Part shown: piece after piece, positions 23,831 to 49,542 of the stretch | How the letters are laid out: each line of letters opens with the position of its first letter | Position numbering within the stretch: the stretch's first letter is position 1 | Origin: Armatimonadota bacterium | GTDB taxonomy: Bacteria > Armatimonadota > Zipacnadia > JAUWAU01 | NCBI GenBank assembly: GCA_030601885.1 | Contig: JAUWAU010000014.1 | Coordinates: 68,774 to 132,773 of the forward strand | Reading direction: 5' to 3' | DNA length: 64,000 nt | Translations under genes and position numbers: made by a program | Notes under the pieces: generated by a model | Seen by the model: only the letters and a program-made list of their open reading frames with translations | Databases searched by the model: none | Told to the model about the DNA's origin: nothing

Positions 23831-26308
23831 ATGAACTTGCCCCTGGATAGCCGCCGCCTGGCCGTCACCGAGCTGGACGATGCGACGCTGGCCGCGGAGC
23901 TGGAAAGGCTTGGCCTCGTGATGACGCCGTACGAGGCCCGCCGTATCGTCGAGCTGATCGGCCGCGATCCGACGCTCGTGGAGCTGCACATCTTCAACGT
24001 AGAGTGGAGCGAGCACTGCTCGTACCGCAGCAGCCGCGCGACGCTCGAGGAGTTCCTGCCCACGACGGGCCCCAACGTTATCATGGGCCCTCAGGAGGAC
24101 GCCGGCATCATCGAGCTGGGCGTCTTCGACGGGCGCCGCTACGGCGTTGTCATCGCTCACGAGAGCCACAATCATCCCTCGCAGATTCTCCCCAACGAGG
24201 GCGCGGCAACCGGCATCGGCGGGATCGTCCGCGATGTGGACTGCATGGGCGCCATCGTCGTGGGCACCGCTGATCCGCTGCGCTTCGGCAATCCACGCGG
24301 ACGCCACGCCGACCGAACATGCTGGATCGCCCGCGGTGTCGTTGACGGCATCTGGGAGTACGGCAACGCCCTCGGCGTACCCATTCTCGCCGGCGACCTC
24401 GTGTTCTCCGAGTCCTTCGACGACAACTGCGTGGTCAACGTCGTCGCCATCGGCATCGTGGCCGAGGAGGACATCATCCACAGCGCCGTGCCACCCGAGG
24501 CGGCCGACGAGCCGTACGACATCATCATCGTCGGCAAGCCGACGGACGACTCGGGCTTCGGCGGCTCGGCCTTCGCCAGCAAGATCCTCGGCGACGAAGA
24601 GGAGAAGCAAGAGGACCGCGCCGCCGTCCAGGTGCCCGACCCTTTCCTCAAGAACGTCCTGCTGATGCGCAAAGCGAACGAGGATGTCCGCCGCGCGGCC
24701 AAAGAGCAGGGGATCGTCATCGGCATCAAAGACTTCGGCGGCGGGGGCTTTGCCTGCGGTACGTCCGAGATAGCTGCCGCGGGCGGCTTTGGCGTGGATC
24801 TTGACTTGAACGCCGTACACGTCGCACTGGAGAACATGCTGCCCGAGGTCATCTGCTGCGCCGAGACGCAGGAGCGGTACGTGCTCGCCGTGCCCAGCCA
24901 TTTCACGCCCACGGTGCTGAAGATCTACAATGAGGACTGGGACCTGCCCAACATCTACGAGGGAGCGCAAGCTTCCTGCATCGGCCGGGCGACTACCGAC
25001 AAGCGCTACGTGCTGCGGCACGACGGCAAGATCGTGGCGGATGCTCCGGTGGACGTGATCACGGGGGGCATTCGGTACGACCGCGAAGAGCAGCCCAAGG
25101 AGCACGAGGGCCGGGAACCGGACTTCGAGCAACCCGACGACCTTGGCGAGTGCCTTCTCAAGGTCCTCAGCAGCGAGAACGTGGCCTCGCGAGAGTTCCT
25201 CTATCGCGCCTACGACACCGAAGTGCAGGGCAACGCCATCATCCGCCCGGGCGAGGCCGACGCCGGCCTCATCGCGCCGCTGCCAGAGGAGCGTGTCGGC
25301 GTGGCGCTGGCCACCGACGGGAACCCCTTCTACGGGGCCATTTCGCCCTTCTGGGGCGGCGCGACGGCTGTTGCCGAGGCGATGCGCAACGTGGCCGCCA
25401 TCGGCGCCGTCCCCAGCGGCCTGACGGACTGTCTCAACTTCGGCAACCCGGAGAAGCCCACCGCTTTCTGGGAGTTCCGCGAGTCGGTGCGCGGATTGGC
25501 CGAGGCGGCAAAGCAGCTCTGGCTCAAGGGTCACCAGAACACGCCGGTACCCATCATCTCGGGCAACGTGAGCTTCTACAACGAATCGACCACCGGCAGC
25601 GCCGTGCTCCCCTCGGCCATCATCACCTGCATCGGCATCATGCAGGACTACAGCAAGGCCCTCACCATGCAGCTCCGCCAGCCCGGCAATACGCTCGTGC
25701 TGCTCGGCGCGCGGTACGATGAGCTCGGCGGCTCCGAGTACTACCGCACCATCCTGGGCGAGACGGGCCGTAACGTCCCGCGGGTGCGCTGGGAGCACGA
25801 GCGCGCCAACATCTACGCCGTCATCGACGCCATAGATGCGGGCCTCGCGGAGTCCTGCCACGACATCTCCAATGGCGGGCTTATCGCCACCGTCGCCGAG
25901 ATGATGATGGGCGGCTACGCCCGTGGACCGTGGGGCGCGGAGCTGGACATCGAAGCCTTGTGTAGCGCAGCCTTCGGGAGCGCAGGCCCCTGTCTGAAGC
26001 GGGGCGCCTGTCTGAAGCGGCGTGCCGTACGGCATCCCGTACGGGACTGCCAGCCTGCAAACCACGCCCTCCGCGCCGACAAGCTCATCTTCTCCGAGTC
26101 CGGCGGATTCGTCCTCGAGGTGTCGCCAGGTAATCTTGACCGCCTGAATGACATCGCCGCCTCTCACAGCGCGGAGCCCGTGACGATCGGGAGCGTTACC
26201 GAGGCGCCCGCGCTCGTCGTGAGGGACTCCGACCGCCAGCTCATCTCCCTCCCCTCAGAGCGCCTGAAAGCCGCCTGGACGCGGGGGCTGAGCGAGGCGC
26301 TGGAGTAA
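23831..26308 (+). CDS. purL: Phosphoribosylformylglycinamidine synthase subunit PurL (FGAM synthase II) with a 36-aa in-frame insertion
   Basis: WSEHCSY.SS, ESHNHPS, GAATGIGGIVRD, QV.DPF, D.GGGG, ETQER, DCLNFGNPE, SGNVSFYNE, HDISNGG, FSES. Confidence 0.96.
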   Translation: MNLPLDSRRLAVTELDDATLAAELERLGLVMTPYEARRIVELIGRDPTLVELHIFNVEWSEHCSYRSSRATLEEFLPTTGPNVIMGPQEDAGIIELGVFDGRRYGVVIAHESHNHPSQILPNEGAATGIGGIVRDVDCMGAIVVGTADPLRFGNPRGRHADRTCWIARGVVDGIWEYGNALGVPILAGDLVFSESFDDNCVVNVVAIGIVAEEDIIHSAVPPEAADEPYDIIIVGKPTDDSGFGGSAFASKILGDEEEKQEDRAAVQVPDPFLKNVLLMRKANEDVRRAAKEQGIVIGIKDFGGGGFACGTSEIAAAGGFGVDLDLNAVHVALENMLPEVICCAETQERYVLAVPSHFTPTVLKIYNEDWDLPNIYEGAQASCIGRATTDKRYVLRHDGKIVADAPVDVITGGIRYDREEQPKEHEGREPDFEQPDDLGECLLKVLSSENVASREFLYRAYDTEVQGNAIIRPGEADAGLIAPLPEERVGVALATDGNPFYGAISPFWGGATAVAEAMRNVAAIGAVPSGLTDCLNFGNPEKPTAFWEFRESVRGLAEAAKQLWLKGHQNTPVPIISGNVSFYNESTTGSAVLPSAIITCIGIMQDYSKALTMQLRQPGNTLVLLGARYDELGGSEYYRTILGETGRNVPRVRWEHERANIYAVIDAIDAGLAESCHDISNGGLIATVAEMMMGGYARGPWGAELDIEALCSAAFGSAGPCLKRGACLKRRAVRHPVRDCQPANHALRADKLIFSESGGFVLEVSPGNLDRLNDIAASHSAEPVTIGSVTEAPALVVRDSDRQLISLPSERLKAAWTRGLSEALE
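25961..26068. repeat. Nested REP-like palindromic insertion inside purL
   Basis: CGGGAGCGCAGGC[60 nt]TGCCAGCCTGCAA matches the reverse complement of the intact REP at 49474-49499 with 1 mismatch; the insert holds CCTGTCTGAAGCGG twice and ATCCCGTACGGGA. Confidence 0.8.
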
Positions 26309-26517
26309 CCAGATGGAGGCACGGCCAATGCGCCGGGGGCGCACGGGCCCGTGCCACCCGGGTGCTCCGCATCGCGCCCGGCTCTGGCCGGAAGGGGCCG
26401 CAGGGTCCGTAGACGAATATGCTCTCCCTGGAAGCCAGGAATTCGCGATTGGAGAGGCTTTGTTCGGGGGACAGCCCGCCGGTGAATGTAACGCTTGGCA
26501 GCAACGGGAGGCGTCAG

Positions 26518-27966
26518 ATGCAGACAGATCGTCGTGGCTTTCTGAGGGCGATTGGCGCGGGCGCATCCCTGGCGGCCACGAGAGGTGTGTTGGCTGTGGA
26601 CTCGACCCACTCGGCAACACCTAACATCGTTCTATGCATGGCCGACGACCAGGGATGGGGCGACATGGCCTACAACGGTCATCCCGTGCTGAGGACCCCA
26701 AACTTCGACGCCATGGCCGCCTCCGCATTGCGCTTCGATCGCTTCTACGCCGCCGCCCCCGTCTGCTCTCCCACCCGCGGGAGCGTCATGACCGGGCGCC
26801 ACCCGAACCGCTTCGGCTGCTTCAAGTGGGGTCATACGCTTCGCCCACAGGAGATCACCATTGCCGAAGCCCTGAAGACCGCCGGATATGTGACCGGCCA
26901 TTTCGGAAAGTGGCATCTTGGCTCCGTCCGCCGGGGGAGCCCGGTGAATCCCGGCGCCAGCGGCTTCGATGAGTGGCTCTCGGCCCCCAACTTCTTCGAC
27001 AACGACCCCATTCTCAGCCGCGAGGGCGTGGCGGTGCAGACCGAGGGCGAGAGCTCCATGGTCACCGTTGACGCCGCACTCGAGTTCATCCGGAAGCACG
27101 CCGAGAGCCCGCGGCCGTTCCTGGCCGTCGTCTGGTTCGGCTCTCCGCACTCGCCGCACGTGGCGGTCGAGCAAGACCGCGCGCTCTACGCGGACCAGGA
27201 GGAGAAGCTGCAGCACTTCTACGGCGAGATCACCGGCATGGATCGCGCCTTTGGCAAGCTGCGACAGGAGCTCCGTGCCCTGGGCATCCACGAGAACACG
27301 ATCCTCTGGTATTGCAGCGACAACGGTGGCCTCCGTGGACTCGGCGCCACCGGCGGACGCGGTCACAAGGGCCAGGTCTACGAGGGCGGGCTGCGTGTTC
27401 CGGCGATCCTTGACTGGCCCGCACGCATCCCGGGGCCGCGGAACACCGACGTGCCCGGCAACACCTCCGACATCTATCCCACGCTCCTGGAGATCGTGGG
27501 CGTGCGAATGGCTGGCCAACCGCCGCTGGACGGGCTGAGCCTCGTTCCCCTGCTCCACGGGGAGATGACTGCGCGACCGGAGCCGATGGGGTTCTGGGAC
27601 CATCCGACTCCCGGCATCGGGACACCGAGCGTCGAGTGGATGTCCGAGCTTCTTGAGGCCCAGAGGGCAGGCAGTGAGCCCAGCGACACTTCTCGCCTGC
27701 GCCTGGATGCTGCGGACATCACCCAGCAGCATCCCGAGGACGCGTTTCCGGGGCACGCGGCGTGGCTCGATTGGCCGTGGAAATTGCACCGGATCCACGG
27801 GAAGACGGGCGACGTTGGGCTGGAGCTGTACAATCTCGCCGAGGACCCTGCCGAGGAACACGATGTTGTCCCGCAACACCCTGATCGGACGGGGGCCATG
27901 AAGTCCGAGCTCGAAGGCTGGCTGGCATCTGTCGTTCGCAGCCTCAACGGCGCGGACTACCGGTAG
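26518..27966 (+). CDS. Sulfatase (arylsulfatase A-like), Tat-exported
   Basis: DRRGFL Tat motif, PNIV..MADDQG, CSPTR, GKWHLG, SDNG; RBS GGGAGG before ATG 26518. Confidence 0.93.
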   Translation: MQTDRRGFLRAIGAGASLAATRGVLAVDSTHSATPNIVLCMADDQGWGDMAYNGHPVLRTPNFDAMAASALRFDRFYAAAPVCSPTRGSVMTGRHPNRFGCFKWGHTLRPQEITIAEALKTAGYVTGHFGKWHLGSVRRGSPVNPGASGFDEWLSAPNFFDNDPILSREGVAVQTEGESSMVTVDAALEFIRKHAESPRPFLAVVWFGSPHSPHVAVEQDRALYADQEEKLQHFYGEITGMDRAFGKLRQELRALGIHENTILWYCSDNGGLRGLGATGGRGHKGQVYEGGLRVPAILDWPARIPGPRNTDVPGNTSDIYPTLLEIVGVRMAGQPPLDGLSLVPLLHGEMTARPEPMGFWDHPTPGIGTPSVEWMSELLEAQRAGSEPSDTSRLRLDAADITQQHPEDAFPGHAAWLDWPWKLHRIHGKTGDVGLELYNLAEDPAEEHDVVPQHPDRTGAMKSELEGWLASVVRSLNGADYR

Positions 27967-35799: not shown

Positions 35800-37005
35800 T
35801 CACCGGCTACCGCGTCGCGCGATCAGGCGGGAGGCTGCCGCGAGCACGAGTACCTGCATGACCATCGAGCCGGGCAGGAGCAGGACGCCGCCGCGCAGGC
35901 CGAACGCATCGCCCAGTGTGCCTATTGCCCACGGGAAGATGACGCAGCCGGCGATGCCCGCTGCGGCCAGCAGCGCAAACAGGGATGCGGAGCCGGTGGC
36001 GATGTTGTCTGACGCCAGCGCCAGGATGGTTGGCCAAAAGCACGCCACAAACAGCCCGCTGAGAGCGAACAGCACCCATGCGCCCCACAGCCCCTCCACG
36101 AAGTACAGGCCGAGAGTGACAAGCGCGCACGCCGCGGCTGAGGCGGTCATCAGGCGCAGCGGAGTGACAAGCATCACCACACCGCTGCCGGTGAAGCGTC
36201 CGGCGGCCATGAATGCCCCGAACAGGACCATAGTCCACGCGCCGCCGCGTGCCGAGGCCCCGAGCTCATGCTCCACGAAGTTCGGTCCCCATGATGTCAG
36301 CCCCGCCTCGCATCCACCTCCCAGTACCATACCGATGAGCAGCGGCCAGAACAGCGGGTCCGTGAGGAAGCGTCGCGGACGACCGGCCTCCCGATGGGCG
36401 GCCTCGACCGCGGGGTAGCGGCGCGTGAGGAACAGTCCGGCGCACACGAGCGCGGGCGGCACCCACAGCCAGAATGGCAGCCGCCACGACCCGCCCGCCT
36501 GGAGGACCTCGCCCGTTGTCAGCGCTGCCAACACGAGGCCCACCGAGAACAGGCCGTTGATGATGTTGAGCACTCGCGCGGACGCGCGCGGGTTGAGCTG
36601 GGCTACCAGGGGATTGACGAGGGCCTCCATGACGCCCTTGCCCAGTCCGGAGACGGCGTTTGCACCGAGCAACGCGACATATCCGGCTGCCCGGGCGGTG
36701 GCCGCCTGGCCGGCCGCAATGAGCACCGCCCCCCAGAACAGAAAGTGTCTCTTGCCCAGGCGATCGCCCAGGTAGCCGACCACGAGGAGCGAGACCAGGA
36801 GCGCGCCCATGCGCGCGGTGGTCAGCAGCCCGCGCTGCTCGAAGTTGAGGTGCAGCTCCCTGCCGATGGCCTCCAGGCAGACGGACGGGATCGCCACGCT
36901 CGCTCCGAAGACGATCATCCCGACCGCCGAGGCAGCCATGAGGCGGGAGTACGCCACACTGGGGCGATGCTCGGCGCGGCTACTGGGAGGGGGGCTATCC
37001 GTCAT
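35800..37005 (-). CDS. MFS transporter
   Basis: About 12 hydrophobic helices; motif A GYLGDRLGKR; start uncertain (ATG 37005 or 37014). Confidence 0.9.
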   Translation of the reverse strand: MTDSPPPSSRAEHRPSVAYSRLMAASAVGMIVFGASVAIPSVCLEAIGRELHLNFEQRGLLTTARMGALLVSLLVVGYLGDRLGKRHFLFWGAVLIAAGQAATARAAGYVALLGANAVSGLGKGVMEALVNPLVAQLNPRASARVLNIINGLFSVGLVLAALTTGEVLQAGGSWRLPFWLWVPPALVCAGLFLTRRYPAVEAAHREAGRPRRFLTDPLFWPLLIGMVLGGGCEAGLTSWGPNFVEHELGASARGGAWTMVLFGAFMAAGRFTGSGVVMLVTPLRLMTASAAACALVTLGLYFVEGLWGAWVLFALSGLFVACFWPTILALASDNIATGSASLFALLAAAGIAGCVIFPWAIGTLGDAFGLRGGVLLLPGSMVMQVLVLAAASRLIARRGSR

Positions 37006-49383: not shown

Positions 49384-49473
49384 TTCATTACCTGCTCACT
49401 ATACGACAACTCGCCGATTCCTGACGGTGGCAATGCCATACTCGTTCCCATACCTATAGGAAAACATACGGAC

Positions 49474-49523
49474 TTGCAGGCTGGGAGCCTGCGCTCCCGG
49501 GAACGCACGCATCCCTGCCTGCT
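49474..49523. repeat. REP-like doublet (intact parent form of the element inside purL)
   Basis: TTGCAGGCTGGGAGCCTGCGCTCCCG followed by the degenerate inverted copy GGAACGCACGCATCCCTGCCTGC. Confidence 0.7.
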
Positions 49524-49542
49524 GACGCGATCTTCTTCAGTG

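Follow-up and report, generated by a model that had tools for sequence, protein, structure and literature searches.

Palindromic DNA inserted in frame into genes is known mainly from Rickettsia. Passages of one article describe the Rickettsia palindromic elements (RPEs) as palindromes of ~150 bp that sit, as single insertions, in frame in unrelated housekeeping genes, where the extra peptide is tolerated (PMC10969869). Sections of a second article describe REPINs inserted into or beside other REPINs, and movement as single-stranded DNA, shown for IS200/IS605 elements, has been proposed there for REPINs (PMC3116915). Here we analyze a 64,000-nt stretch of DNA, called the window (assembly GCA_030601885.1, contig JAUWAU010000014.1, positions 68,774 to 132,773), from an uncultured bacterium of the phylum Armatimonadota. 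Its purL gene carries an in-frame insert. We read this insert, with a probability of about 0.75, as three layers of tiny non-autonomous hairpin mobile DNA that were added stepwise in a length-tolerant loop and are translated as a disordered loop. The outer layer is a repetitive extragenic palindromic sequence (REP) that we name R1. The two inner layers are copies of a 30-nt double-hairpin unit that we name AB.

In Escherichia coli, REPs have a conserved GTAG-type head next to the hairpin, and enterobacterial REPs form mosaics, the bacterial interspersed mosaic elements (BIMEs), in which units lie side by side in intergenic DNA. Elements of the IS200/IS605 type and their miniature derivatives carry a hairpin at each end, lack inverted terminal repeats and do not duplicate their target. 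The small dispersed repeats (SDRs) of the Nostocaceae (Elhai et al. 2008) are reportedly 21–27 nt long, share a secondary structure kept by compensatory changes, and nest in themselves and in other repeats; they are said to have been proposed as the smallest mobile elements. Passages of other articles report insertion of SDR5 in HIP1 and a restriction of SDRs to the Nostocaceae (PMC5861425), and citing passages also support the nesting of such very small units (PMC3116915). In a full-text literature search, no match among those listed linked Armatimonadetes or Armatimonadota to REPs, REPINs or REP-associated tyrosine transposases (RAYTs), and we found no related account of nested insertion into REP hairpin loops.

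The purL insert extends in-frame palindromic insertion to a free-living, GC-rich, uncultured phylum. A preliminary description of the window, made from its letters, had likened the insert to RPEs. The functional analogy holds, as palindromic units lie in frame in purL and in four other genes, including housekeeping genes. Membership of the RPE family does not hold: the present units are 24–30 nt long and stacked three deep, and their host is a sediment bacterium. Size and lineage set the two apart, and a relation in sequence is not expected.

The insert in PurL

The window belongs to a metagenome-assembled genome (MAG; G000) of 6.8 Mb in 90 contigs, 95% complete and 6.2% contaminated. The sister species of the same genus is referred to as G001. 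On the forward strand the window encodes PurL, the small-type phosphoribosylformylglycinamidine (FGAM) synthase II, in an open reading frame (ORF) of 825 aa (23831–26308) with the Pfam domains AIRS, AIRS_C and FGAR-AT_linker. It is the single full-length match in G000. Between GAELDIEAL and LRADKLIFSES the ORF contains 36 codons (25961–26068), loop plus insert, with the peptide CSAAFGSAGPCLKRGACLKRRAVRHPVRDCQPANHA. The G001 ortholog has 7 codons there. Protein and DNA comparison with G001 gave a net insertion of ~87 nt, or 29 codons (25973–26059). Divergence of the native loop leaves a few nt of uncertainty at its outer boundary. A three-way MAFFT alignment of the DNA misplaced the gap, and protein-anchored pairwise alignments were used instead. 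None of the 29 relatives in the PurL alignment, the sister species included, has the insert; the alignment drew on a search that matched 41 of 41 genomes. The 36 alien codons had been noted in exactly this place by the preliminary description, and the observation is confirmed as real and not an artefact.

All parts of the insert were assigned on the forward strand. R1 is split into a 5′ half, GGGAGCGCAGG (25976–25986), and a 3′ half, CTGCCAGCCTGCA (26047–26059); the intact R1 allele of a related strain, described below, reads straight through the break. The 60 nt between the halves are one AB unit, AB1, split by another, AB2. Hairpin A of AB1 (25987–26004) has a 4-bp stem and the conserved 10-nt loop TGTCTGAAGC, and hairpin B (26035–26046) is the 12-nt palindrome TCCCGTACGGGA. 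Between them lies AB2 (26005–26034), a complete double-hairpin unit of 30 nt and of the CG..CGTG..CA subtype. The boundary of hairpin A is ambiguous by 1 nt, and 25988–26047 is an equivalent placement of the 60 nt. Counts of 12-mers in G000 stay at a background of 1–15 across purL, with peaks of 24–64 confined to the insert.

The nested, multi-layered, REP-like nature of the insert, in frame in a variable PurL loop, had already been proposed and is upheld. The split REP-like unit (halves read as 25975–25987 and 26048–26060, 60 nt apart), its inverted copy with 1 mismatch elsewhere in the window, the duplicated CCTGTCTGAAGCGG and the palindromes GTGCCGTACGGC / TCCCGTACGGGA are all present. One part of that proposal is replaced. 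It had divided the 60 nt into a 14-mer duplication and a 29-nt element split by a 12-nt palindrome. This division agrees with the sequence but calls for three kinds of event, and no free copy of the 12-mer was found. We prefer AB1[AB2] because a single kind of unit, used two times, accounts for the 60 nt, and both positions recur at other loci.

The protein was mapped on a structure. The closest solved structure is that of Thermus thermophilus PurL (3viu, E 1.5e-120). An AlphaFold2 (AF2) model from a 30-sequence alignment had a mean predicted local distance difference test score (pLDDT) of 83 and a predicted template modeling score (pTM) of 0.88, and matched 3viu with a target-normalized TM score of 0.92. 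Residues 714–745, between helices 708–713 and 749–754, had pLDDT below 50 (block means 44, 26 and 27), and the flanking blocks had 93 and 94. Because this low-scoring segment stands between high-scoring blocks, the prediction for the insert is a disordered loop protruding from an intact PurL fold. The site tolerates length change, since three relatives (L006, L010 and L016) have longer loops of their own there. These three, from genomes G035, G018 and G008, share one family of insertions, ~6–14 aa long and of LLPADPTEP type, unrelated in sequence to the repeats of G000. Compared with the related strain over 405 codons, purL has a dN/dS of 0.26 and is under purifying selection. That the insert is translated we infer; the two RNA runs of the source study contained next to none of the words searched and are uninformative for expression.

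The repeat units R1 and AB

R1 is a 24-nt hairpin repeat consisting of GGGAGCGCAGGC followed by TTCCAGCCTGCA or a near variant, with the palindrome arms GCAGGCT/AGCCTGC. Its word GGGAGCGCAGGCWTCC occurs 47 times in G000, 4 times in G001 and 0 times in the 19 other relatives searched. The reversed control gave 0 in G000, and the family appears from these counts to be genus-specific. Copies often form inverted doublets. On contig C51, doublets at 36395/36448 and 37102/37155 bracket a gene that passes the NCBIfam RAYT model NF047646 with 93.2 bits (cut-off 80). Because doublets of the hairpin repeat flank a RAYT gene, we take R1 for an ordinary REP with its cognate RAYT.

R1 thus resembles REP/REPIN–RAYT systems in being a short GC-rich hairpin with tens of copies, inverted doublets, a flanked RAYT gene and a range of one genus. 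Of the REP/RAYT features tested, R1 lacks the head: no constant GTAG stands beside the unit across R1 copies. Other repeat families of G000 do start with TGTAG. There are two further differences. REPs are extragenic by definition, whereas R1 also lies in frame inside essential genes, and here REP loops are landing sites for a second, smaller element. Exact R1 copies lie mostly between genes, by inspection rather than by a count against a gene call. When the R1 12-mer was searched with 1 mismatch, 60 of 203 matches fell in genes, many of them by chance.

G000 is unusually rich in REP/RAYT systems. It has 12 Y1-transposase matches (PF01797, Y1_Tnp), of which at least 3 pass the NCBIfam RAYT model, each flanked by its own repeat family, several TGTAG-headed. 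The RAYT/Y1 loci include C51:36395–37166, C7:50617–51129 and C7:183176–183766, with others among L048–L057. The frame of the R1-associated RAYT (L057, C51:35073–38303, minus strand) stays open for 735 aa, past the R1 doublet downstream of it and on into the neighboring gene, whose product begins MPNIKIVLVGGGSYSW. This is probably a consequence of the stop-free repeat and not a fusion. The commonest 12-mers of G000 come from other families: the GGAAACGATGAAGATG type with ~120 copies, the TTGTAGCCGGAGCAGCTTGCTCCGGC type with ~95 and CACTGACCACTG with ~100. Masking of G000 by 12-mer frequency at a threshold of 12 gave 86,046 segments and was too noisy.

The intact R1 copy in the window (49474–49499, minus strand) is empty, differs by one base from the purL halves and is part of a composite repeat of ~130 nt. 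The composite consists of an AT-richer CTATAGGAAAACATA head, an inverted R1 pair and a GCCCCGAAGGGGCGC hairpin, and resembles a miniature inverted-repeat transposable element. It has at least 8 close copies (C21:7909, C87:202023, C10:78690, C35:72822, C18:102552, C11:49217, C70:262731 and C81:58756). The window copy at 49440–49530 is a diverged relative.

AB has the format N2-CCTGTCTGAAGCGG-N4-CCGTACGG-N2 with a constant length of 30 nt. Hairpin A, with the conserved 10-nt loop, is directly followed by the palindromic hairpin B. With up to 1 mismatch per core, G000 holds 63 units with 28 distinct 30-mers. The AB word CTGTCTGAAGCGG occurs 60 times in G000, against 1 for the reversed control; G001 has it twice, and none of 39 other relatives has it more than once. 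A scan for the AB core with one genome per species returned a G001 contig alone; G000 was perhaps outside that scan. The expectation that the sub-elements recur across the genome was thus borne out for both R1 and AB.

The stems of AB covary. All four variable pairs are Watson–Crick in 55 of 63 units, and 242 of 252 cells are paired. Column shuffles (n=1000) gave a mean of 141 and a maximum of 162 paired cells, and partners slid out of register gave 26–142 of 252. Among the 28 distinct 30-mers, 102 of 112 cells are paired. Each of the four pairs is seen in two fully complementary forms: C-G 37 and G-C 24, T-A 33 and C-G 27, C-G 51 and G-C 10, and T-A 36 and C-G 24. Changes on both sides of the stem are plain at all four pairs.

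The positions of AB follow a few rules. A purine precedes the unit in 60 of 63 cases, a pyrimidine follows it in 62 of 63, and target duplication is absent. Units lie in the loops of R1, of the further host repeats R2 and R3 and of others, always in one orientation. Ten AB-in-AB loci occur in G000, and one unit lies in a BNR-domain gene without a host repeat. In R2 the same loop position holds different stem subtypes in the same orientation, and the TG..CATC..GA subtype occurs in both R2 and R3 frames.

AB resembles the SDRs in its very small size (30 nt is slightly above the range reported for SDRs), in stems kept by compensatory changes and in its nesting in itself and in R1, R2, R3 and other frames. 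It differs in phylum and sequence, in having two hairpins within its 30 nt and in settling in the loops of REPs that are linked to RAYTs. The present data add sites that are empty in one ortholog and filled in the other, and successive stages within one essential gene. Because of the different phylum, AB is unlikely to belong to the families SDR1–8. With IS200/IS605-type elements AB shares two different hairpins, no terminal inverted repeats, no target duplication, one orientation and precise empty sites. Unlike them, it has no conserved 4–5-nt target upstream, just purine^pyrimidine. Among the 12 Y1_Tnp matches of G000, none is tied to AB. BIMEs are likewise composite arrays from few hairpin modules; here, in contrast, one unit sits inside another at an exact position, and empty states were observed.

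Empty and filled sites

Sequences of related strains were compared at the insert. A Joint Genome Institute (JGI) metagenome contig (L081) contains the C-terminal 405 PurL codons and is identical to purL at 1166 of 1215 nt (96%). It reads CSAASGSAGFQPANHALRADK, an intact R1 with a gap of exactly 60 nt relative to the window. A 2670-nt contig of run X3, which belongs to a different study, covers 25500–25987 and 26050–26500 with TT between, which is again an empty R1. The empty-R1 purL of these ~96%-identical strains represents the intermediate stage. In run X5, a 31-kb contig that bridges 25973–26067 has 81 other letters in place of the window's 93 (25974–26066). The sequence of the 81 is unseen; the X5 strain holds a third filling state of purL. 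In run X2, contigs end inside the repeat, at 26004 and 26035.

Two further comparisons gave empty and filled states. A sugar-transferase gene on contig C87 has an R2-derived insert common to G000 and G001, and the G000 copy is longer by exactly 30 nt, one AB unit in the R2 loop. The two species of the genus have here an orthologous AB site, empty in G001 and filled in G000. In the ~130-nt composite, 6 copies have an empty R1 and 2 are filled with the same 30 nt. The boundaries of empty and filled sites are ambiguous by at most 1–3 nt.

The nested-insertion reading is correct in outline and is backed by these natural intermediates. They form a natural time series of selfish hairpin DNA growing in a working essential gene, from no insert in the sister species, through the REP alone in close strains, to the REP with two nested units here.

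An incorrect assembly would also produce an unusual purL: its halves might have been joined across a repeated 30-mer, with a different true locus. Contigs of the probable source run X1 cover 25500–26034 and 26005–26500; they end in the repeat, their overlap is the 30-nt AB2 alone, which is present at 10 loci, and the contamination of the MAG has been given above. However, each contig has AB2 attached to purL-specific sequence of its own side with 0 differences from the window, related strains in two other data sets have purL continuous across the site with R1 in place, and the reading frame, the pattern of GC at third codon positions (GC3) and the C-terminal domain go on normally. We regard an artefact as very improbable. 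In practice, repeats of this kind break short-read assemblies within genes and can pass for errors.

The insertion steps can be proposed as follows. In the first layer, R1 would have landed in frame in purL as a 24-nt REP, with a net gain of 27 nt. In the second, an AB unit would have entered the loop of the R1 hairpin. In the third, a second AB unit would have entered exactly between hairpins A and B of the first; the order of AB1 before AB2 in purL is inferred. The mover would most likely be a HUH/Y1 enzyme of the RAYT type that acts in trans on single-stranded DNA. Such an enzyme might recognize the hairpins and paste the unit into unpaired DNA beside a stem, between a purine and a pyrimidine. 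AB keeps one length and one orientation, has stems that covary, causes no target duplication, is flanked by purine^pyrimidine and lands in the loops of hairpins; these rules are open to direct test with purified RAYTs and oligonucleotides.

The preliminary description had taken the multiples of three as a sign of selection. This fits the outer layer, with its net 27 nt. It does not fit the inner units, whose length is intrinsic because they are 30 nt everywhere, intergenic DNA included.

The filling of R1 in purL could have another origin. Gene conversion, or template switching at hairpins during replication, might have copied the filling from other repeats that were already filled, with AB as a structural module that spreads with its hosts and is not itself mobile. 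The subtype of AB1 and its R1 junctions in purL are those of other filled R1 copies. Another 7 R1 sites hold the outer unit with these junctions, R1-type frames contain 10 units of its stem type, and a unit follows 8 of the 73 GGAGCGCAGGC matches in G000, purL among the 8. In G000 all 10 units of the AB2 subtype are inserted in another unit, at the junction of its hairpins A and B. A contig of run X2 has the same A1–AB2 junction in another host repeat (loose end at 25985), so ready-made composites exist as possible donors. Against this origin, the homology on each flank is just 11–13 nt, and R1[AB1[AB2]] was found nowhere else in G000. The occurrence of one AB subtype in the unrelated hosts R2 and R3, the different subtypes at one R2 loop position in the same orientation, the unit without a host repeat in the BNR-domain gene and the validity of the purine/pyrimidine flank rule across hosts also speak against conversion. 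We consider it unlikely as the source of the purL filling.

Several points weigh against stepwise insertion of mobile units. Part of the pattern could be due to copying between repeats with and without AB, and the 60 nt in purL could have come in one event. A stage with R1 and AB1 alone was not seen in purL, where the X2 contigs are broken in the repeat and the X5 letters are unseen. The X1 contigs meet only in the 30 nt of AB2, in a MAG with 6% contamination. AB sites show no conserved 4–5-nt target for a mover beyond purine^pyrimidine. The shuffle control takes no account of relatedness, and independent AB insertions are well below 63 because many copies in one kind of host repeat may stem from a single insertion, later copied together with that host. 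When the whole insert is folded, the minimum free energy (MFE) structures pair one repeated unit with another instead of reproducing the four modular hairpins, and z is only -2.5 to -2.9; covariation is the basis of the modular reading. Of the repeats that bear AB, a single one adjoins a RAYT gene (contig C7, ~80 nt upstream), as would be expected in any case of an AB carried by REPs, and no enzyme could be linked to AB. No full-length AB parent with a gene between hairpins A and B turned up, and no systematic search was made for one. Finally, PurS (PF02700) was not detected in G000; given the small size of PurS and the 95% completeness of the genome, this says little about whether the pathway is complete.

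A more specific proposal makes AB a mobile element in its own right, with 30 nt one of the smallest known, and a hyperparasite of REP/RAYT systems. It would land in the single-stranded loops of extruded REP hairpins and in its own A/B junction and would borrow a RAYT to cut and join. We put this forward tentatively, as possible and less probable than stepwise insertion as such. If it were true, the system would have three tiers, namely the host, REP/RAYT and AB. Stacks could then grow in essential enzymes as new disordered loops, because both units are nearly stop-free.

Repeats in other genes and the setting of purL

All 6 frames of R1 are free of stops, as are 5 of the 6 frames of AB, so copies that lie in frame rarely truncate a protein. 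AB units are strongly excluded from genes: 4 of 63 lie in coding-like ORFs, judged by GC3 on both sides, against 979 of 2000 random sites in the same test, and the survivors are in frame. Selection shows in this scarcity and in the dN/dS of purL rather than in unit length.

Genes with repeats were collected by a motif-in-ORF screen, which gave 119 coding-like cases from 778 clusters, most of them single chance matches of 10–12 nt. Ten ORFs with several motifs or the A motif were inspected, eight were run against Pfam, and six were compared with orthologs in five relatives. By comparison with orthologs, in-frame repeat insertions were confirmed in four conserved genes besides purL. A thymidylate-synthase-like gene (C10:275054–276148, L058) has 25 additional aa from two R2 copies, absent from 5 of 5 relatives. 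A CofH/MqnC-like radical S-adenosylmethionine gene (C82:340554–341786, L059) has R1 copies; the G001 protein is shorter by one R1, four other aligned loci from 3 genomes have no insert, and G038 gave no match. The sugar transferase described above (C87:281584–283092, L060) shares its R2 insert with G001 and has the AB unit in G000 only. A major facilitator superfamily (MFS) transporter (C84:3984–5369, L062) has ~58 aa that are absent from G001 and G038.

Such insertions offer a route by which proteins acquire new loops, and the purL insert might itself have been co-opted, its Cys/Arg/Lys-rich loop or its strong mRNA hairpins giving PurL or its expression a new, selected property. It adds 4 Cys and a strong net positive charge, and its RNA fold is at -48.7 kcal/mol (z -2.85). 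Repeat inserts can also persist, since the repeat loops of the CofH/MqnC-like and sugar-transferase genes are common to both species of the genus. Yet close strains manage with an empty R1 and the sister species without any insert, the segment is predicted to be disordered, and units are depleted from genes. The peptide is also merely what the repeats encode in that frame: the same repeats encode the same peptides in unrelated genes, and the R1 frame GSAG..QPA is common to purL and the CofH/MqnC-like gene. Co-option therefore seems improbable, more so than conversion.

Loss of function is a further alternative. PurL might be inactivated by the insert, or the insert might be cut out at the RNA or protein level before the enzyme acts. 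Nothing direct favors this. Besides the undetected PurS, purL lies outside a pur operon: the gene downstream (26419–27963) encodes a sulfatase. The ORF of this single-copy gene is intact with a low dN/dS, purQ is present on another contig (C36:42293–42994), and the loop that holds the insert differs in length from one relative to another. There was no sign of an intein or intron: Pfam gave PurL domains alone and an Rfam scan of the window gave no family at gathering score, with chance-level matches alone around the insert (E 0.28–4.5). Inactivation or removal is as improbable, in our view, as an assembly artefact. An R2 motif within purQ was a chance match, with no insertion there.

In-frame repeat clusters also occur in an HGD-D-family gene (C87:230141–231634, L061), where the G001 contig ends at the site, and in the BNR-domain gene (C82:247474–248688, L063), which has no close ortholog. 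The A motif by itself occurs in two large secreted proteins (C60 and C82:93702).

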